IMG/VR virus record: IMGVR_UViG_3300046490_000096
Location: 1-64,000 of that record
Direction: 5' to 3' (one strand)
Origin: a virus
Lineage: Duplodnaviria; Caudoviricetes
Length of the DNA stretch: 64,000 bases
A program made the position numbers and the translations under genes. Below are positions 39,021 through 61,332 of this stretch, one piece after another (within the stretch, counting starts at the first letter, position 1; the number at the start of each line of letters is the position of its first letter). Under the pieces are notes generated by a model, which saw only the letters and a list, made by a program, of their open reading frames with translations, was not told where the DNA came from and made no database searches.

Positions 39021-39412
39021 TGAATCCCTCCGAATTCAGCGGCCACTCTCGGCCAGTTTGGTTCCTCGTTCTTGTCGTCCACAAATGCGTCCGCTTCCGG
39101 TTTCCCCGGATGCTGCCAGACCTCGTCGAACATCTCCCACAGCCCGAGCGCCCGCAGAAAATACCGCATCTCGGCGAAGCGCTCCCACTGGTCTGTAATG
39201 CGCGGTGACACTTCCCCGGTCTGATACCAACGCGCCGCTTCCTCTTCCAGTTGCGGCGCTGGGTCTAAAGGCGTGCACCTGCAGGAGTGAAGCACGAGGT
39301 GATGCCCGGCCCTTTTGAGCGCTGCAAGGGCCTCAGCAGCGCCAAGGCGAAGCGCAAGGGGCCTACCGTGGGCCAGTGACCCATCGAAATCGAAGGCCAG
39401 TCGTAGGCTCAA
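39017..39412 (-). CDS. HAD-superfamily hydrolase
   Basis: LAFDFDGSL (DxD), VLHSCR, KPEADAFVDDK. Confidence 0.8.
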   Translation of the reverse strand: MSLRLAFDFDGSLAHGRPLALRLGAAEALAALKRAGHHLVLHSCRCTPLDPAPQLEEEAARWYQTGEVSPRITDQWERFAEMRYFLRALGLWEMFDEVWQHPGKPEADAFVDDKNEEPNWPRVAAEFGGIQ

Positions 39413-41118
39413 GGCTTGCCCCCATTGCCAGCTTGCGGCGTGGCAGGCTCTTTAGGCTTTGGCGCAACGGGTTGACCGGGTAGCTTTGGCTTGCCGGGTA
39501 GCTCGCCGTAACCCATCATGTCAAGCTCGTCTTTCTTCTGGGCGCGGATGGTTTCCAGAAGCTTCTTGGTGTCCTTGATTCCGAACAGTTGAGCGCCCCG
39601 GTTGACGGCGGTCTCCTCGTCGATGATGCCGCCTTCCTTCGCGGTGACGATGTTCGTGATTTCGATCTGGCGGTCGGTCTCGGTCGGGGCGAAGTACGGG
39701 CCCCATGTGATCTTGATGTGCCCGCCCGGTCCCAGCTTGCGAGGCGTGCCGTCGGGACGAGGCGGAAGGTTGAGCTGGAAGACCGCGTCCACCTCTTTGC
39801 CCTTCTCGTTCAGGGCCTTGGTGGGCTTGCCGTCGAAGGCGCGAGCCATGAAGTCGATCAGCTCCAGAAGTCCGACCACGAGAATGTCCCCGTACTGCGC
39901 TCGCAAGTCGTCGGCAGCTTCGAGCATCGGAGCGTACAGGAACTCCATCGCCTTCGCCGACTGCGCGGCGCCTGACATCTGCTCCGGGTCCAGCATCACG
40001 CAGCGAACGACCTTGAGAGCTTGTGCGATCTTCTTGTCCGCGTACACGCTGGCCGCCTGGATTCCGGCCGCGCTGATTTCCATGTAGTGCGCGTCGCCCG
40101 TGGCCCCGACGTAGAGCGCATTCTCGGAGCCCTTGCGCACGCTTCCGCCCATCTGCGCGACCTCTTTCGGGTCGGTGCGAATGACGGTGGTGGGGTCGCT
40201 GTTGCAGAGCAGGCCCTTGTTCGCCTGGGAATCCAGCCGGTCCACGGTATCGAAGATTTGCCAGACCCCGTGGCAGTCAGGGTCGCCGTCTTCGCTGTCG
40301 AGCACCTCGGAATTCTGGCACCAGATGCCAGGGAACCGCCCGAGCCCATGCACCCCCTGGGATTCAACTTCCCACTTCATGTCCACGTTGGGGCTGATTT
40401 TCACCGGCTTGAACACGGTATCGTCGTCTTCGGTGATGATCCGCCGGTAGAGGTACTCGACCACACGCGTGCCCCGCTGGTTGCCCTTGTCGTCGATCTC
40501 GACCTCTTCCACCGGGTAGCGGTACAGCTTCAGAACCGCGAGCGGAGTCTGGGTCCGCTTGTCCTTCCAGAGCACCTGGCAGTGCTTGGTGTTGTGCACC
40601 TCAAGCGAAAACTTGCCATCCCGCAGGTGACACGTCACCAGCACGGTCCCCGTCCCGCCGCCCATGTTCCGGGCCGCGGTCATCTTAGAAAAGAAGCGCA
40701 TCTGCTGCATGCATGCCTGCAGGTAGTCCTGCGTGTCCTCGTCGCCCTCGACCTCGACCACCGGCCGGCGAGCCTGGGAGAACAGCAGTCCCGTGAAGCG
40801 CTTGTTGATGGCCATGCCGAGATTGAAGGGCGCCGTCGGCCGCTTCATGCGCACGGACATGTTGATCGCCGGCTGCTCGAATCCCGCAGGAACCTGGACC
40901 GATGGGCTGATGGTCTCCATCTGGTCGGCGGTCATCCCCCACCAATCTTGCTTCAAATGAAGATAATGGGTGGTTCGCCAGACGGCCTCGTACCTGTCGA
41001 GCCGGCGGAAGCGCTCAGTCTCTCCGGTGATCGCGTTGGTGTAGAACCACTGCTTGACTTCCTCGCTGCGAGGAATCTGCATCTGCGGAGCGGGTCCGCC
41101 CGTGAGGGTGTCAGCCAT
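39409..41118 (-). CDS. Portal protein
   Basis: 569 aa, first large gene of the head module, upstream of head morphogenesis; AQSAKAMEFLYAPML and ITWGPYF motifs. Confidence 0.8.
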   Translation of the reverse strand: MADTLTGGPAPQMQIPRSEEVKQWFYTNAITGETERFRRLDRYEAVWRTTHYLHLKQDWWGMTADQMETISPSVQVPAGFEQPAINMSVRMKRPTAPFNLGMAINKRFTGLLFSQARRPVVEVEGDEDTQDYLQACMQQMRFFSKMTAARNMGGGTGTVLVTCHLRDGKFSLEVHNTKHCQVLWKDKRTQTPLAVLKLYRYPVEEVEIDDKGNQRGTRVVEYLYRRIITEDDDTVFKPVKISPNVDMKWEVESQGVHGLGRFPGIWCQNSEVLDSEDGDPDCHGVWQIFDTVDRLDSQANKGLLCNSDPTTVIRTDPKEVAQMGGSVRKGSENALYVGATGDAHYMEISAAGIQAASVYADKKIAQALKVVRCVMLDPEQMSGAAQSAKAMEFLYAPMLEAADDLRAQYGDILVVGLLELIDFMARAFDGKPTKALNEKGKEVDAVFQLNLPPRPDGTPRKLGPGGHIKITWGPYFAPTETDRQIEITNIVTAKEGGIIDEETAVNRGAQLFGIKDTKKLLETIRAQKKDELDMMGYGELPGKPKLPGQPVAPKPKEPATPQAGNGGKP

Positions 41119-49837: not shown

Positions 49838-50058
49838 GCCCGGCCCCGATCGCGCACCGATGCCACCACGTCCATCAACTCGACCAGCCTAGCCCTTCTC
49901 TCGCGGTCCTCTTTGGCAGACGCGTAGAAGTAGCGGACCACGCACCACTGCTTCCTGTCACAGTCCGCTGCTGGGTAGACCGTGCGCACCTGCTCGTTCA
50001 GGAAGTGCGTCCGCTTCAAGTGCTGGCGGCGGGCTCCGAAGCGGTAGTAGGAGATCAT
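49834..50058 (-). CDS. Small hypothetical protein
   Basis: 74 aa, overlapping neighbours. Confidence 0.45.
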   Translation of the reverse strand: MISYYRFGARRQHLKRTHFLNEQVRTVYPAADCDRKQWCVVRYFYASAKEDRERRARLVELMDVVASVRDRGRA

Positions 50059-50240
50059 GCCGGACTCGCTCCCTCGCCTGCCTTCACGGTCACGCGTCCG
50101 CAGCGGTAGCAGAATAGGTCATGCGTCTTTAGGTCATCCAACGTGAGATTGCGATCCATCGGCGTCAGATCGCCTAGTTCATCATCGCCGCACACCGGGC
50201 AAATCGGCCAGCCGTCTTCGCGCCAGGATTCTGGCTTCAC
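50055..50240 (-). CDS. Small Zn-ribbon protein
   Basis: CPVC..CYRC. Confidence 0.55.
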   Translation of the reverse strand: MKPESWREDGWPICPVCGDDELGDLTPMDRNLTLDDLKTHDLFCYRCGRVTVKAGEGASPA

Positions 50241-50476
50241 GCCCGGCCTCGATTCACATGCCCGTGCATGATCCCCATGTCGGTCATCGTCTCGGCGGAC
50301 ACCTCACCTTGAACCCGCGGGGAGTCCTCCGGGTCGTCGAAGATTTCCGCCTCGTCCTCGGCCTTGCCGTCGAGGTAGCCTTCGACGAAGTCCTGCATGT
50401 CGGCGATGGCTTCCTTGCGCTCCTCGGGCAGGAGCTTCTCAAACTCCCGGTAGAACGCCTTGGTCAGGGGGTGCAT
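50237..50476 (-). CDS. Small acidic hypothetical protein
   Basis: MHPLTKAFY start, TGATG-coupled. Confidence 0.55.
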   Translation of the reverse strand: MHPLTKAFYREFEKLLPEERKEAIADMQDFVEGYLDGKAEDEAEIFDDPEDSPRVQGEVSAETMTDMGIMHGHVNRGRA

Positions 50477-51837
50477 CACCCCGCCGCCTCCACCTCTACT
50501 GGATCTTCTTCCCTCACCCACACAGCTAGCCTCGCCCGCACCACATTCCAGTCCAGGTTCCTGAACGCCGCCGCCATGCCCACGTCCTTCCGCGCGCCGT
50601 AGTCCATCATGTACGCGTCCGGGCTTGCGTCGATGGCCAGCAGGACCGGGCAGCCAGCCGGCACGCCTTCGTAGCCTCCGCCCACCAGCGCGTTTCGCAC
50701 GGCGTTTCGGCGCGGGTCCCAGACCGTGAGCGCCCAGCCTTGCTCGACGCTTCCCAGAATTGCCCGCAGGTCCAGCAGGTAGCTTGTCATCGAGCCCCAG
50801 GTCTTCGTCACCTCGCGGAGCAGAACGCCCGTGGGCATCTTCGCGAAGTCCGGCACCTCGCCGATGTAGTCCTTGTTCCGCGTGAGGGCCTCGAAGTACA
50901 GCTCATGCAACCGGACCGCGTTGTAGGCGGCCGGCTCCTGGCGTAGCAGCTCCGAATGCTCGGACCAGCCTTCGAAGCTCTTGAACGGCCTCGCCCCTTG
51001 CCCCGTGCCAAGAGCTTCTCCCACGGTGCCCTTGAGCTTGCGATACGAGACGGGCCGGCCTGGGTAGAGGTTCGTCGGCGCCGCGTTCAGGATACCAGCC
51101 TTGGCCAGGCCTTCCATGTAGCGGAGCTTGTCCAGCGCCTTGGGCCAGTCCGCGTATTCCTGCTCCCACTGTGATGTCGGGTCCAGCCAGCAGGCGAACG
51201 TCTCGGCCCAGTCCTCGTCCGGATGCTTCTGGCCGTAGTGGTCGCTCACGTCCGTGAGGTACTCCACGAAATCCTCGCTCCGCGCGTCCGAAGGGAACTC
51301 GTCGCGATACGGAATCCGGAAGTCACCGAAGAGCGCTTCCCAGTCCGGTCGGCGCCACAGCTCGTGCGTGTAGTTGACCGCGTGGCCTATCTCGTGGCGT
51401 AGGCACTTGAGCACCTCGTCTTGCGAGTAAGCCGTCCCTTCCTGCCTGTTCGCCAGTCGCCAAAGCGTAGGGTTGGCCAGGTACCACGGGATGTTGATGC
51501 TCAGCCCGCGGTCAGTCGTCCACCAGTCGTCATCGCCCAGGTAAAAGTTGGGCGACACGTTCACGCCGGCCGCGACCAGCTCCTTCTTCACCTGGTAGAT
51601 GGCCGCCGCCAGCGCACCCTGAATCTTGAGCTCCAGGGAAGCCACAGGAGCCGCCAGTATCGCCGCGACCTTGGGCGGAGGAGACTCGCCCCAGTCCGTG
51701 AGCGGGTAGGCCGCCTCGATCGCGTTCAGGCGCTTCACCGCCTCCGCGTATCCGCCCAGGTGCGCGGCCAGCATGCGGTCGCTGATCCCGACCAAGTGGC
51801 CGCGAAGGTAGGAGAAGTCTCGGGCGATGATGGGCAT
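50476..51837 (-). CDS. Degenerate Fe/Mn-SOD-fold protein with inserted HExxH zinc metallopeptidase (Peptidase_Mx-like) domain
   Basis: SOD helix 1 (DFSYL..GISDRMLAAH); insert with HEIGH and YGQKHPDEDWAETFACWL; SOD remainder NAVRLHELYF..WGS..GWA..IDASPDAYMMDYG..FRNLDWNVV. Start at 51837. Confidence 0.8.
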   Translation of the reverse strand: MPIIARDFSYLRGHLVGISDRMLAAHLGGYAEAVKRLNAIEAAYPLTDWGESPPPKVAAILAAPVASLELKIQGALAAAIYQVKKELVAAGVNVSPNFYLGDDDWWTTDRGLSINIPWYLANPTLWRLANRQEGTAYSQDEVLKCLRHEIGHAVNYTHELWRRPDWEALFGDFRIPYRDEFPSDARSEDFVEYLTDVSDHYGQKHPDEDWAETFACWLDPTSQWEQEYADWPKALDKLRYMEGLAKAGILNAAPTNLYPGRPVSYRKLKGTVGEALGTGQGARPFKSFEGWSEHSELLRQEPAAYNAVRLHELYFEALTRNKDYIGEVPDFAKMPTGVLLREVTKTWGSMTSYLLDLRAILGSVEQGWALTVWDPRRNAVRNALVGGGYEGVPAGCPVLLAIDASPDAYMMDYGARKDVGMAAAFRNLDWNVVRARLAVWVREEDPVEVEAAG

Positions 51838-51842
51838 GGGTT

Positions 51843-52232
51843 CTATCCTACCACCGGCACGACCGTGACCCATACGCCGGGCTTGGTCCCCTGCATGTGA
51901 TTGTGAGTGCTTCCCAGGTAGTAATCCGGGCTGTCGTCCAGAATGAGCTTGGCCGTCTTGAGCCCATCGTTGACAAACTTCGTTCCAGCTTCGCGATTGT
52001 CCCGATCCATCTCGGACTTGTTGCCGTTGATGGGAGCCACCCACAGGAGTTCCAGCCGGTATGCTCCGGCCACCTTGGTGACCTGCGCAGCCTTTGCCAT
52101 CCAAGCGACGTTCTCGGTCCACAGCTTCTTCAGACGAGCGTACTTGAATCCACGCCCGCCGCATCCCTTGCACGCTTCGATGACCTCGTTTAGGCCGGGC
52201 ATCTGGCCGTTGACCCAAAAGCGCGTTGCCAC
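51843..52232 (-). CDS. rusA: RusA-like Holliday junction resolvase
   Basis: PGLNE..KK..DRDNREAGTKFVNDGL..ILDDS; GTG start at 52232. Confidence 0.75.
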   Translation of the reverse strand: MATRFWVNGQMPGLNEVIEACKGCGGRGFKYARLKKLWTENVAWMAKAAQVTKVAGAYRLELLWVAPINGNKSEMDRDNREAGTKFVNDGLKTAKLILDDSPDYYLGSTHNHMQGTKPGVWVTVVPVVG

Positions 52233-52233
52233 C

Positions 52234-52419
52234 CTATCCTCCCATGAAGGATCGTCCCGTGGCCGTCTCGCACGCCTCCGACCAGCCGCCGCGCTCCGGA
52301 CGTGCATTGCCGCACGCCTCGCAAAACACGCCGTCGTCGTCTTCCCGCTCGACGTGTCCACGAGTAGTTCCATCCGGGTTGGGGACGAAACGCACGTCCG
52401 GGAACGGCTCCGGACTCAT
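52234..52419 (-). CDS. Small Zn-binding hypothetical protein
   Basis: MSPEPFPD..CEAC; ATGA-type overlap. Confidence 0.45.
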   Translation of the reverse strand: MSPEPFPDVRFVPNPDGTTRGHVEREDDDGVFCEACGNARPERGGWSEACETATGRSFMGG

Positions 52420-52670
52420 TGACAGGTGCTCGCCGCGGTCAGTGCCTTCACGTCCCAGGGCACCGTTTGGGCCGCGTTGGTGCAGACCTCGGCGCAGGTG
52501 TGGCCCATGGGTGTTGGCTTCGCCCAGGTGCATCCCAGCTTCGTTCCTTGCGCGCACGCAGAGGTGCATGTCGCGGCCGGCGCGGGACAGGGCTTGGTGG
52601 CCTCGGTCGGGCAAGGCGTGGTAGCGCAGGCCGAAAACAACGCGATCACCATGATGAATATGATTTTCAT
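52416..52670 (-). CDS. Cys-rich lipoprotein
   Basis: Lipobox FSAC and eight further Cys. Confidence 0.75.
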   Translation of the reverse strand: MKIIFIMVIALFSACATTPCPTEATKPCPAPAATCTSACAQGTKLGCTWAKPTPMGHTCAEVCTNAAQTVPWDVKALTAASTCQ

Positions 52671-53488
52671 TGTCGAACTCCAGCGGGGACGAGCAGGTTG
52701 ATCCAGAGGTCAGAAGCCCCGTAGTTAGGGCTGGTCAAATAGTCATATCCGAACCTGCAGCAACCATCTGGAAGTCCAGGCTCATGCCCGCCTTCCTTGC
52801 CCCAGGAGCCCTTGATGAGGACCCACTCCTCGGCATGGTTGAACCCGGCAATCGTGAGACAGTGGCCTCCCGCGATGGTGTCGCGCGATGTCGGCGCGTG
52901 AATGATTCCGGTCGGGGTTGAGCTGCAGAACTCTTCAGTGACGAGACAGCCGAAGGGGATGCCGTGCTTTGCGGTTGAGGCCGTTTCGATGTCACCAATC
53001 AGTGTCGCACCTTGCGAGCTGATGGGATGATAGTTGATTCCAATGGTCCCCCGCGAATCAAAGGCCGCCCTGTCCACGTCAGGACCTGGAAGCTGTTTGA
53101 ACTTCGAGATGTCGTACGGGTACACGCTCTCATTCGGCACACCCTTGGCAGCCAAGATGGTGTAGGCGTCCCCGATGTTTCCGCCTGCGTCCTGGTTTAC
53201 TTTGCCCTCCAGATACCGGATACCGAAATAGAGCCAAAGGCGCGCCAGCACGAATGCGGGAACGCCAGCCTTCTTCATGGCCATGTACATGGCCTGCGCC
53301 GGTCCGTTGCTCTGGCAGCTTCCCAGCTGGCCCTGGTCGAGGTCGCAGGTAAGCGAGGAGTTGTCGGCCGACTTTGCCTTCGCAAGCCCAGCCAGCACAC
53401 TATCGCCGGCCTCTGGGTGCGCCTTCAGCAGCGTCCTGATTCGTTGCTCTGGAGTTGGGGCTACCCAACCGAGTGCTCTTGTGTTCAT
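52667..53488 (-). CDS. Papain-family (C1A) cysteine peptidase
   Basis: DQGQLGSC, LWLY..R, GGHC, IKGSWG; start MNTRALG at 53488. Confidence 0.85.
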   Translation of the reverse strand: MNTRALGWVAPTPEQRIRTLLKAHPEAGDSVLAGLAKAKSADNSSLTCDLDQGQLGSCQSNGPAQAMYMAMKKAGVPAFVLARLWLYFGIRYLEGKVNQDAGGNIGDAYTILAAKGVPNESVYPYDISKFKQLPGPDVDRAAFDSRGTIGINYHPISSQGATLIGDIETASTAKHGIPFGCLVTEEFCSSTPTGIIHAPTSRDTIAGGHCLTIAGFNHAEEWVLIKGSWGKEGGHEPGLPDGCCRFGYDYLTSPNYGASDLWINLLVPAGVRQ

Positions 53489-53808
53489 TGATTTTCCTTT
53501 CGTTTGCATGCTGGCCAGTACGGTTCGCCACAGCTCCCCGCGGCCACTTTTGCTTGAGCTTCCCCGCGGCACGGCTCCTCGATGCCACAAGCGTTCCACG
53601 CGCAAGCCGACCACACCATTCCCTGGTCGTCCACGCAGGAGGCTGGGACAGCGTAGTGGGGCGTGCAGCGCGGCTTCGCGTGAGCCTGCTCGAGGCGGGC
53701 CGCGAGTTCGGTTCCTGGCGTCGGATCGTGCGGCGCTGTCGCGCAGCTAGCGAGCGTCCCGATGATGAGGCCAGCCAGCCAGAGCCAGAGCAGGTGGATT
53801 GGCTTCAC
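53485..53808 (-). CDS. Cys-rich lipoprotein
   Basis: GTG start; LWLWLAGLIIGTLASC lipobox; seven further Cys. Confidence 0.7.
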   Translation of the reverse strand: MKPIHLLWLWLAGLIIGTLASCATAPHDPTPGTELAARLEQAHAKPRCTPHYAVPASCVDDQGMVWSACAWNACGIEEPCRGEAQAKVAAGSCGEPYWPACKRKENQ

Positions 53809-56246: not shown

Positions 56247-56603
56247 CTACGCCAGTGCCTCGGCCATCGCCTTGACCGTGGCCAAGAACAGATGATCCTT
56301 CTGCTGCTGTGCAGGCGGTAGCTCGGCGTATGACACAAAGCGCGGGTGCTCCTTCTTCTCCGGATCCTTGACCGGGCCGTACTTCCATCCCGTTGCGTAC
56401 TTTTCGGCAAGCCACGACTCGTGCGACTGCTCTGGCGTGTTCCCAGCGAGCGCACCAGCAACGCCATTGATGGCTGACGAGCGCTGCCAGTCGGGAGCGT
56501 CCTTCCATGCTGGCTGCGACAGGTCGCCGTGGGCTTCGCAGTAGATGCGGTTCATTTCGTGGGCAGCTTCTGCACATTTTTCGATTTTCTGTTGTGTATC
56601 CAT
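56247..56603 (-). CDS. RyR-domain protein
   Basis: AEAAHEMNR..PEQSHESWLAEK..GWKYGPVKD..KKEHP..Y.ELP..QQ.KD. Confidence 0.85.
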   Translation of the reverse strand: MDTQQKIEKCAEAAHEMNRIYCEAHGDLSQPAWKDAPDWQRSSAINGVAGALAGNTPEQSHESWLAEKYATGWKYGPVKDPEKKEHPRFVSYAELPPAQQQKDHLFLATVKAMAEALA

Positions 56604-56866
56604 CAGACCCTCTCCTTCTTTCGTTCCGGTTCCTTGGGCGACCTGCTCACCATGAAGGCATCCTTCTGGACGATCTTCAGGGCCGCCCTCTTGATCTTCA
56701 ATCGAGCTGGGAACTGCGCGCAGCACTCCGGGCAAAGACAGGGGAGAGCTCGGCGGGATTCCCGGCTGCTGCTCACGATGTCGGCCTCGCTGGTTGTGGC
56801 GCCCATAGGTACAGCTTCCCGCGCACAACCCGATCCTTCGTCCAGCCGGCTTTCTTGTAGCAGCAC
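56603..56866 (-). CDS. Small hypothetical protein
   Basis: 87 aa with CLCPECC; TGATG coupling. Confidence 0.4.
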   Translation of the reverse strand: MLLQESRLDEGSGCAREAVPMGATTSEADIVSSSRESRRALPCLCPECCAQFPARLKIKRAALKIVQKDAFMVSRSPKEPERKKERV

Positions 56867-57303
56867 CCTGGATTGGTCGAACGCACGTTCTTAATTCCGA
56901 TCTCGGTGCGCAGTCTCTCGACGGGAAGTTCACCGTAGCGTTTGAGCCACTCCGCATAGGTCATTTCGAGGGCCGCGCGCACTAGATCCGACGATCGCTC
57001 CTCGCCGAGGTTTCGGAAGACCATGTTGCGCCAGATGTACCGCGGCGCCGAGTCGGTTGCTCCTGTGCGCCCTCGGCTTGCCCCGGTCCCGCGTGCACTC
57101 GGTGTCCGCTGCCGAACCACCGCCCACACGGCGTCGCCGTCGTCGGTAACGAGTACAATCTCTTGGCCTACGCCGGTGAACGTCTTACTCCCTGGCGTGC
57201 GGCGAGAATAGTGCGGCCCCTTTCCTGCGTGCTTGCCGGTGCCATCGACAACGTCCAGGGCGCGCCGGTCACTGGACGATGACAATGTCCAGCGAGCGAT
57301 CAC
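56773..57303 (-). CDS. Mom-like GNAT-fold DNA-modification protein
   Basis: HYSRRTPG..F.GVG..IVL; W.N.VFRN..RSSDLV; STNPGCCYKKAGW. Confidence 0.7.
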   Translation of the reverse strand: MIARWTLSSSSDRRALDVVDGTGKHAGKGPHYSRRTPGSKTFTGVGQEIVLVTDDGDAVWAVVRQRTPSARGTGASRGRTGATDSAPRYIWRNMVFRNLGEERSSDLVRAALEMTYAEWLKRYGELPVERLRTEIGIKNVRSTNPGCCYKKAGWTKDRVVRGKLYLWAPQPARPTS

Positions 57304-60113: not shown

Positions 60114-60153
60114 CCCCTGTATATGCGTCTAGGCCGAAACGGCTTCGATCAAA
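60114..60153 (-). promoter_or_regulatory. Repeated promoter motif class 2, copy 3
   Basis: Overlaps the last codons of the terminase ATPase gene. Confidence 0.7.
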
Positions 60154-60929
60154 TCTGGGTAATCGTCTCCACCCCCGACCACGGTCTGTTCCACCTCCGT
60201 GCAGTCGTCGGAAATGCTCTGCCGCAAAGTGCACCACCGGGGCCGCTGCATGAGATGGTGAAGGGCGTCGTCTTGGTGCCACGTTGTGCCAATAGCAAGC
60301 ATGTTCCCGTCCGGCTCCAAGCGGGAAAACCACGTCTCTTCCAGCAGCGAGAGCACCCTGCGCCGCTGGATTGGGTCCATGCTGTTCTTTTGGTCCACCA
60401 CGTCATCTAGCAACTCGATATCTGCGCGTCCACCAATGCCCGTCGTGAAGATTCCGCGGGCCTGCACCGTTGGGTCGACCGCATGCCCCACGCGCTTCAC
60501 GTAGAGTTCGTGCCCCGTCCACGCTCCGCCGCTCACCACGCCTGGGAACACCTGCCGATAGACCACGGACTCGAGAATGCGCTTCACAGCCCCCACCCGC
60601 TTGCTCGCCGAGTCGTCGTCGTTGGTGATGATCTTGATGCGCAGGTTCGGGTCTTGACCGATCATGTAGGCGCATAGAGGTACAAGTAGGGAACTTGACT
60701 TCCCATGGCCGAAGGGCGCCAGCGTCATACATCTTAACTCACGAGTCCAACAGTAGTTCAGGTGCCGAATCCAGGACATGTGAATCGGGGCCAGCTTGAT
60801 GCCGACGCCGTGATCGTCCTTCACGGCGAGCGCGATGAAGTTGGCCAAACTCGTGCGGGCCCGCGCCACCTTCGCGTTCCACAGGGCAGCGAGAGCGCGC
60901 GCGGGCGATGGCTTATGCTGTGGGGGCAT
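60129..60929 (-). CDS. Terminase large subunit, stand-alone ATPase half
   Basis: Walker A APFGHGKS, GIGGRAD, Walker B IELLDDVVD, coupling motif IGTTWHQDD; stops before any nuclease domain. Confidence 0.9.
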   Translation of the reverse strand: MPPQHKPSPARALAALWNAKVARARTSLANFIALAVKDDHGVGIKLAPIHMSWIRHLNYCWTRELRCMTLAPFGHGKSSSLLVPLCAYMIGQDPNLRIKIITNDDDSASKRVGAVKRILESVVYRQVFPGVVSGGAWTGHELYVKRVGHAVDPTVQARGIFTTGIGGRADIELLDDVVDQKNSMDPIQRRRVLSLLEETWFSRLEPDGNMLAIGTTWHQDDALHHLMQRPRWCTLRQSISDDCTEVEQTVVGGGDDYPDLIEAVSA

Positions 60930-61332
60930 CGTCCTTCCGTCCAAACTTCGCCAGCAGCCACTTCGCGACGAAGTCCAAGGGACTCGATACGATGGGAAAC
61001 GCCGGGTCCCCGGTCATGCCCATCGGCTCGAAACGCATGCCCATAAGCTTCCTGACGCTTGGTTCGAACGGGACGCCGTACTGCCAAGCCATACTCAAAC
61101 TCATCGCTACCGCGTCGAGGGCGCCCCTGGCCATGGAGCCTTCCTGATCAGCCTTGATAAACACCTCGCCGGGCCGTCCGTCTTCGTACAGCCCAACGTG
61201 GACGTACATTTTGAGCGGTCCGCGCTTGATTTCCTTTCCGCAGTGCTCGCACTTCTTCGGCTGGCGTGGGATGCGGAACGCCTTGCAGACGCTCTTGCGC
61301 TCGTCCGGCAGGCGCATTCGCTCTGGCGTCAC
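60913..61332 (-). CDS. Stand-alone TSCPD-domain protein (class II ribonucleotide reductase C-terminal-like)
   Basis: RLPDERKS..MYVHVGLYEDGRPGEVFIK..SMAWQYGVP..FEPMG..SSPLDFV. Confidence 0.85.
   Translation of the reverse strand: MTPERMRLPDERKSVCKAFRIPRQPKKCEHCGKEIKRGPLKMYVHVGLYEDGRPGEVFIKADQEGSMARGALDAVAMSLSMAWQYGVPFEPSVRKLMGMRFEPMGMTGDPAFPIVSSPLDFVAKWLLAKFGRKDDAPTA

Follow-up and report, generated by a model that had tools for sequence, protein, structure and literature searches.

A phage gene encodes a single polypeptide in which a zinc metallopeptidase-type domain is nested within an iron/manganese superoxide dismutase (SOD) fold. The gene lies on the minus strand of a 64 kb stretch (hereafter the window; positions 1 to 64,000) of the 81,160-bp IMG/VR virus record IMGVR_UViG_3300046490_000096, which has a CheckV completeness estimate of 86%, and its 453-residue product, P0001, consists of SOD helix 1, the inserted domain, and then SOD helix 2 with the SOD C-terminal domain. 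Both domains belong to known families. A sequence-only reading of the window, made earlier from the letters alone, knew of no described protein with this architecture, and we likewise found no published account of an SOD with a nested peptidase in the literature on Peptidase_Mx (PF15887), phage and viral SODs, polyvalent proteins or the SodFM survey; within the literature covered, the arrangement is undescribed. On balance, and with modest confidence, we read P0001 as an active zincin peptidase carried on an SOD-fold platform, which would form the constant module of a polyvalent-type family of phage effectors.

The C-terminal flank is recognized directly at the sequence level. Pfam Sod_Fe_C matches residues 335-436 (expectation value (E) 7.8e-7; 29.5 bits, cut-off 20.9), an SOD entry of NCBIfam matches weakly, and the best sequence match among solved structures is the Fe-SOD of Aquifex pyrophilus (PDB 1coj; E 3.7e-8, query residues 272-438), to which the family profile aligns at E 1.3e-29. 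The Sod_Fe_N profile has no match in P0001 in the Pfam search at E up to 10, a PHROGs search with the protein returned no match, and helix 1 is recognized only through structure and through similarity to an uninserted relative, P0140. An AlphaFold2 model of P0001, built on 70 relatives, has a mean predicted local distance difference test score (pLDDT) of 90.3 and matches SODs in Foldseek at E 3e-8. When the model was scanned against 48,161 chains, 1coj ranked first (Z 23.3, root-mean-square deviation (rmsd) 2.0, 194 of 211 residues), and the alignment covers model residues 1-442; helix 1 is therefore part of the SOD fold, into which the peptidase has been genuinely inserted. The superposition on 1coj shows a two-helix hairpin packed on an alpha/beta C-terminal domain, as SodFM requires, with helix 20-46 paired to helix 293-317 as in a normal SOD, and the N-terminal segment also holds a conserved Tyr30. 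The sequence-only reading had aligned both flanks with Fe/Mn SODs by eye and suggested a domain search and structure prediction as checks; Sod_Fe_C and PF15887 were found, Sod_Fe_N was not, and the predicted structure places both flanks in the SOD fold.

The limits of the insertion come from P0140, a 209-residue protein that is the nearest relative of the SOD part and is 45% identical to P0001 over residues 1-40 (residues 1-39 of P0140) and 35% identical over residues 280-436. Because the alignment breaks at residue 40 and resumes at 280, the insertion spans approximately residues 41-279, in agreement with the ~240 residues that had been placed by eye between SOD helices 1 and 2, and it replaces about four residues of the hairpin loop. 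Where the chain returns into the hairpin, pLDDT falls below 50 at residues 280-288. Proteins of the P0140 type (~190-300 residues, metagenomic; 693 representatives at E up to 1e-10) have in common with the P0001 family the motifs RDFSYL..ISDR..H..LY and GWALTVWDP, and differ from P0001 in having no insert and in keeping DAWEHAY and the equivalent of Tyr34. One P0140-type gene adjoins a tRNA methyltransferase gene.

The insert is predicted to be a zincin. Pfam Peptidase_Mx matches residues 143-219 (E 6e-7; 29.6 bits, cut-off 27), and the domain modelled alone (residues 47-292, with stand-alone homologues) reached a pLDDT of 88.9 and a predicted template modelling score of 0.88. All 50 of the 50 best structural matches to this insert-only model are zincins or lethal-factor-like domains, and the nearest shapes are the anthrax lethal factor catalytic domain (Z 9.2, 142 aligned residues, rmsd 3.5) and PPEP-3 (Z 7.8); a solved Peptidase_Mx structure, 4l7a, follows at Z 7.2. 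A sequence search with the insert alone against solved chains found nothing meaningful. Given these middling Z scores and the absence of a sequence match to solved chains, the fold call is that of a zincin and not proven membership of M34, the MEROPS family of lethal factor and PPEP.

Two motifs define the predicted active site, as the sequence-only reading had proposed for a zinc metallopeptidase insert, and both translate as it gave them. HEIGH would supply the zinc-binding and catalytic HExxH residues, and YGQKHPDEDWAE forms a second active-site helix in which Tyr201 and Glu208/Glu212 are presumed to be the catalytic tyrosine and the third zinc ligand. Tyr201, Gln203, Lys204, His205, Asp207, Glu208, Ala211 and Glu212 are invariant among the relatives, the count being 70/70 for His148, Glu149, His152, Tyr201, Glu208 and Glu212, and all these residues are likewise invariant in the stand-alone bacterial homologues. 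A similar arrangement, with an HExxH motif and a tyrosine seven residues before the third-ligand glutamate in an E-x-x-A-E-x-F helix, is that of lethal factor and the Pro-Pro endopeptidase PPEP-1. The stand-alone bacterial Peptidase_Mx proteins (PF15887; for example BACCAC_01431, PDB 4l7a) have active-site motifs identical to those of the P0001 insert; they differ in length (~350 residues), in having their own helical C-terminal extension, and in that none is embedded in another domain. We found no characterized PF15887 member in the literature.

A closer look at the SOD active site shows that it has been remodelled in P0001. The ligands, with residue equivalences taken from sequence alignments and not from coordinates, are His26, His311, Asp403 and Asp407, in place of the canonical His, His, Asp and His. 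Three ligands are thus present as the sequence-only reading had stated, and its DASPDAY, derived from D-x-x-E-H-A-Y by loss of the Glu and replacement of the His by Asp, is an exact translation. The four proteins that make up the window's clade (P0001 and three clade-mates, 84-94% identical) all have DASPDAY, which is therefore not a sequencing error. The four proteins also have Pro406, with loss of the bridging glutamate, and Gly388 at the position of the second-sphere His/Gln, and P0001 has Ala33 at the position equivalent to Tyr34. Among the 70 relatives, position 407 is His in 65 and Asp only in this clade. The combination of His, His, Asp, Asp with the further missing active-site residues suggests that canonical dismutase activity has probably been lost in the window's clade.

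The rest of the family looks different. The ligand set His, His, Asp, His is kept in 61/70 members; 52/70 have these ligands and the bridging Glu, 32/70 add His/Gln at second-sphere position 388, and 18/70 are also aromatic at position 33, the equivalent of Tyr34. The remaining states are Cys in place of the Asp ligand (4/70), the His, His, Asp, Asp of the window's clade (4/70), and a fully degenerate site (1/70). The earlier suggestion that dismutase activity is lost or altered therefore fits the window's clade, where positions 407, 406, 388 and 33 have all changed, and does not extend to the family. Nor is the SOD fold merely a scaffold family-wide, as had also been proposed, since all four ligands are retained by 61/70, of which 32 have a fuller site. 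Among the relatives, pairwise identity averages 52% in the peptidase and 44-45% in the SOD parts; the two domains are under similar constraint. Our reading is that the ancestor of the family was a metal-binding, possibly active SOD, as many members still are, and that the window's clade would keep the fold for some reason other than canonical dismutation. The four proteins with the Cys replacement are P0060, P0068, P0082 and P0090; to our knowledge, a His, His, Cys, His site has not been described among characterized Fe/Mn SODs.

The two parts of the protein have separate relatives. In a scan of one genome per bacterial or archaeal species, which gave 590 relatives, the best 80 matches cover only the insert (~51-277), and the closest homologues of the insert are from Myxococcota and Polyangia metagenome-assembled genomes (45-51% identity). 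One apparently longer bacterial match, L005, is a 359-residue stand-alone peptidase with its own C-terminal helices. The stand-alone genes are in chromosomal settings, adjoining SpoIID and Rce1-like genes, and offer no usable functional clue. For the SOD part, we built a tree of helix 2 and the C-terminal domain (106 rows x 151 columns, quick IQ-TREE search), in which all 40 of the 40 sampled insertion-bearing proteins form one clade (Shimodaira-Hasegawa-like approximate likelihood ratio test (SH-aLRT) 99), nested in a group (SH-aLRT 100) whose other members are all uninserted P0140-type proteins. Because all sampled fusions form one clade beside uninserted proteins, the insertion of the peptidase into an SOD-like protein probably occurred once.

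More than 90 clusters of a metagenome protein collection, clustered at 90% identity, have the full architecture at 35-94% identity, many of them on 80-93 kb contigs; IMG/VR holds 14 full-length copies, and in the ESM Atlas the matching cluster comprises 57 members, 100% viral and named only 'hypothetical protein'. Databases label the family 'superoxide dismutase' or leave its members unnamed. All carriers are viral or metagenomic contigs, with none among the best 80 of the 590 bacterial matches, which excludes a common bacterial architecture, and a tblastn search of 50,697 named phage records found no match, so that the family, which PHROGs also lacks, is absent from the collections of cultured or named phages. 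Taken with the tree, this distribution indicates that the family is phage-restricted and monophyletic, conserved within one group of uncultured phages. The family has persisted while diverging to ~33% identity, and therefore is useful to these phages. That the protein is an artefact, a frameshift or an assembly chimera fusing unrelated genes, is close to inconceivable: P0001 is read in one uninterrupted frame, its two SOD halves stand in the correct order on either side of the insert and fold together in the 1coj superposition, and the more than 90 clusters with this architecture, at 33-94% identity, are independent and come from different metagenomes. With no supporting point found, we rejected such an origin, which the sequence-only reading had named as a danger.

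Some relatives are longer than P0001. In these, the SOD-peptidase unit is N-terminal and the tail follows a common linker, read by eye as AGREGL..V.R.V.RG..T..Q..WVRP. The tails include an ADPrib_exo_Tox domain in P0019 (E 1e-26), a DRAT-like ADP-ribosyltransferase in P0295 (E 1.8e-8) and, more weakly, in P0035, and a PI3_PI4_kinase-like domain in P0363 (37.6 bits against a cut-off of 27.1) that is weaker in P0259 and P0391. Other tails were recognized by motif only, from reading by eye, namely a second HExxH, a JAB-like HxHP..S..D, and Cys-rich segments; the JAB-like tails of P0022 and P0051 have no significant Pfam match, and their motif was seen by eye only. The long forms are scattered through the fusion clade, and so the tails have been gained or lost repeatedly. 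P0001 is the minimal, tail-less form, with the SOD and peptidase domains only, and PF03496, an ADP-ribosyltransferase, was not detected in the 81-kb record. At the P0035 locus (L135 7019-7300), a Tad2-like gene and an N6/N4 DNA methyltransferase are nearby. The P0295 locus has an ADP-ribosylglycohydrolase nearby, together with a Tet/JBP, ADDT, acetyltransferase, FAD oxidoreductase and P-loop kinase cluster that is typical of thymidine hypermodification.

The domain make-up of the long relatives is like that of the polyvalent proteins, multi-domain proteins of phages and conjugative elements with a zincin metallopeptidase hub and ADP-ribosyltransferase, JAB/RadC and other effectors, for whose peptidase a role in polypeptide processing or in an attack on host proteins has been proposed (Iyer et al., 2017; PMC5512222). 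Two differences stand out, in that polyvalent proteins carry the peptidase strung in series with other domains whereas the peptidase of P0001 is nested inside one, and in that a dismutase domain has 0 occurrences in that paper (PMC5512222).

In the reading that we favour, a zincin peptidase domain would have been captured from a bacterial stand-alone Peptidase_Mx protein and inserted once into the hairpin loop of an Aquifex/archaeal-type Fe/Mn-SOD-like protein. The peptidase would be the constant enzymatic activity across the family, and the SOD fold probably a metal-binding, self-associating platform that carries it on flexible linkers at the tip of the hairpin. The platform may have remained a dismutase in most relatives; in the window's clade, where the canonical site has been dismantled, it is most likely a pseudo-SOD or has an altered metal site. 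The protein would be expressed from an operon that runs into the packaging genes, and would act in the cytoplasm, cleaving proteins of the host or of the phage in the course of takeover or counter-defence; in the long forms the peptidase may release the appended effector. Of these points, the architecture is secure, and the fold, the conserved residues, the restriction to phages, the single origin, the synteny and the fusion partners are likewise shown here; peptidase activity, its targets, oligomerization and the loss of dismutation are inferred. Phage restriction, common descent, the link to the terminase nuclease gene and the variable tails go beyond what the sequence-only reading had noticed.

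Several points weigh against this reading. The Peptidase_Mx match spans just 79/236 profile positions (87-165), the structural matches of the peptidase reach only middling Z (7-9), and the term peptidase follows from the active-site pattern, its stand-alone bacterial counterparts being without known function. P0001 has no C-terminal effector, so the polyvalent analogy comes from its relatives, and the anti-defence context comes from two loci only. The gene is missing from one related phage (L129) and from three more distant ones (L131-L133). Finally, a His2Asp2 site might remain able to bind Fe or Mn and be partly active.

The last point leads to the possibility of a bifunctional enzyme, in which the SOD of P0001 still works with Asp407 as a ligand, superoxide removal is the main benefit and the peptidase is independent. 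In its favour, only one of the four ligands differs, and its replacement is likewise a metal-binding residue; among the window's clade-mates the SOD part, at 82-95% identity, is as conserved as the peptidase; and most relatives keep four ligands, 32/70 with Glu406 and the second-sphere His/Gln as well. This has to be set against four positions of P0001 that have changed together (His407 to Asp, Glu406 to Pro, Gly388 and Ala33) and against the failure of Pfam to detect Sod_Fe_N, and we regard a working dismutase in P0001 as unlikely. The opposite view, put forward in the sequence-only reading, that the SOD part is purely a scaffold or decoy, a pseudoenzyme for oligomerization or for heteromerization with host SOD so as to deliver the protease to the host enzyme or to poison it, draws on the degenerate site of the window's clade and on structural reuse of the SOD fold elsewhere. 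The mitoribosomal protein mS43 and the plastid PEP-associated subunits FSD2/FSD3 match the P0001 SOD fold at Z 18-20 and represent its use outside dismutation, although these are eukaryotic organellar proteins without an inserted enzyme domain. Four ligands kept in 61/70 members would be unexpected for a metal-free scaffold, and this view also seems improbable to us.

The position of the gene raises a further alternative, a morphogenetic protease that processes virion or packaging proteins. The linkage to the nuclease portion of the terminase large subunit (TerL) is conserved, and portal and head genes are near; the gene nevertheless lies outside the portal-scaffold-capsid block and is missing from some related phages, no known prohead protease family was matched in PHROGs, and the effector-type tails of the relatives are unfit for head maturation. 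A prohead protease was rejected on gene position and on the fusion partners of the relatives, and a morphogenetic role in general is quite unlikely. A bolder proposal makes the protein a phage-effector chassis, packaged and DNA-delivered, in which a metal- or superoxide-responsive platform would control the nested peptidase as it processes and frees interchangeable C-terminal effectors (ADP-ribosyltransferase, kinase-like, JAB-like) or cleaves host defence proteins, with the tail-less, ligand-altered form in the window derived and reduced to the protease only; we consider it doubtful, and offer it as speculation. The zincin peptidase on an SOD-fold platform remains the reading that we prefer.

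Among known SODs, the closest comparison is with the Aquifex Fe-SOD 1coj and the archaeal tetrameric Fe/Mn SODs, grouped as SodFM3/4 (Sendra et al., 2023; PMC10172142). They have LHELYF and GW motifs in common with the P0001 family, half of which also has the C-terminal second-sphere His. They differ from P0001 in the ~240 residues inserted in its hairpin loop, in the HxxxHH motif of helix 1, which is missing in P0001, and in sequence, identity being only ~20-26%. In the SodFM survey, fusion domains were removed from the expressed sequences, and a term search of it found no mention of phage or peptidase (PMC10172142). In BFVD, a 501-residue 'superoxide dismutase' from an uncultured Caudovirales phage (A0A6J5L953) is similar to the SOD portion of the model (E 1e-4, 14% identity), and may be another enlarged phage SOD-fold protein.

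The P0001 architecture puts two different metal sites in one polypeptide and extends the domain repertoire of polyvalent-type phage proteins by an SOD fold. The family is also a natural series of canonical, Asp- or Cys-substituted and degenerate sites, with which one can ask why an SOD fold is kept once dismutation has become dispensable, and it gives a handle on the uncharacterized Peptidase_Mx proteins that are widespread in bacteria. If the peptidase does target host proteins, or free the ADP-ribosyltransferase and kinase-like tails, the family would represent a new host-takeover or counter-defence device.

The features of the gene and its surroundings are collected in Table 1. The start codon is the ATG at 51837, with AGGA 9 nucleotides upstream, and the stop codon is at 50476-50478. 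The longest open reading frame over the gene begins at a TTG at 52218, encodes 580 residues and overlaps the upstream RusA-like gene; it was ruled out as the gene because homologues align from P0001 residue 1 (Met at 51837). A scan found no promoter-like or terminator-like sites around the SOD-peptidase gene.

Table 1. Features of the SOD-peptidase gene and of neighbouring genes in the window (aa, amino acids; nt, nucleotides).
Feature	Position	Strand	Evidence or remark
SOD-peptidase gene P0001, 453 aa	50476..51837	-	translation, Pfam, model, fold matches
SOD N-terminal segment, residues 1-46, hairpin helix 1	51700..51837	-	1coj alignment; P0140 identity
Metal ligand His26, in SOD N-terminal segment	51760-51762	-	kept in 69/70 relatives
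Inserted zincin metallopeptidase domain (predicted), Peptidase_Mx type, residues 57-257	51067..51669	-	Pfam PF15887, model, structural matches
HEIGH, zinc-binding/catalytic HExxH: His148, Glu149, His152	51382..51396	-	invariant in 70/70 relatives
YGQKHPDEDWAE, second active-site helix: Tyr201, Glu208/Glu212	51202..51237	-	conservation
Return linker into SOD hairpin, residues 258-292, partly disordered	50962..51066	-	pLDDT, P0140 alignment
SOD helix 2 and alpha/beta C-terminal domain, residues 293-440	50518..50961	-	Sod_Fe_C, family profile, Foldseek
Ligand His311 within LHELYF	50905-50907	-	SOD helix 2 segment
DASPDAY, altered D-x-x-E-H-A-Y: Asp403 kept, Glu406 to Pro, ligand His407 to Asp	50611..50631	-	alignments
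79-aa acidic protein gene, ATG overlaps SOD-peptidase stop (TGATG)	50237..50476	-	sequence
RusA-like resolvase gene, ends 5 nt before P0001 start codon	51843..52373	-	PHROG 1682, E 1.4e-11
TerL nuclease-half gene, 0.8 kb downstream of P0001 gene	48864..49637	-	PHROG 38 positions 485-627, E 1e-8
TerL ATPase-half gene	60129..60944	-	PHROG 38 positions 266-470, E 4e-32
61-aa protein gene, two CxxC pairs	50055-50240	-	weak zinc-ribbon matches
84-aa protein gene, lipobox-like N-terminus (LFSAC)	52416-52670	-	kept in L081
Papain-like protein gene	52667-53614	-	Peptidase_C1, E 0.0017, below cut-off; kept in L081
RyR-domain protein gene	56247-56957	-	Pfam E 2.5e-10; PHROG matches of unassigned function, E 1e-39; kept in L081, L086, L132

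Along the minus strand, the order is the TerL ATPase half, ~10 kb of assorted genes, the RusA-like gene, the SOD-peptidase gene, four small genes and the TerL nuclease half, beyond which are the portal (39409-41118), a Mu F-like head protein and the major capsid protein. The SOD-peptidase and TerL nuclease genes are syntenic in the related phages L081-L093, L107, L123-L128, L130 and L135; where the encoded SOD-peptidase is 33-94% identical to P0001, the TerL nuclease homologue follows 0.1-4 kb downstream of the gene, or 8 kb downstream in L123. Its absence from some related phages marks it as accessory. A sister phage group, L094-L114 (for example L100 5575-6750), pairs the same Peptidase_Mx-type domain with a ~150-residue N-terminal DFDGT domain, HAD-like by eye (Pfam E 0.11), and here the gene is 2-4 kb downstream of the TerL nuclease homologue.

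The 79-residue acidic protein encoded directly downstream is conserved in that place in L081-L084, is also present in the sister phages L102 and L104, has no significant Pfam match, and could possibly be a partner of the SOD-peptidase protein. The 61-residue protein with two CxxC pairs is encoded between the SOD-peptidase and TerL nuclease genes. The terminase large subunit itself is encoded as two genes ~10.5 kb apart with the SOD-peptidase gene between them, and in L083, L084 and L127-L130 the TerL nuclease match falls in two adjacent pieces in different frames. The ~10 kb stretch before the RusA-like gene includes lipoproteins along with the RyR-domain and papain-like proteins, and the papain-like and 84-residue lipobox genes are directly upstream of the RusA-like gene.

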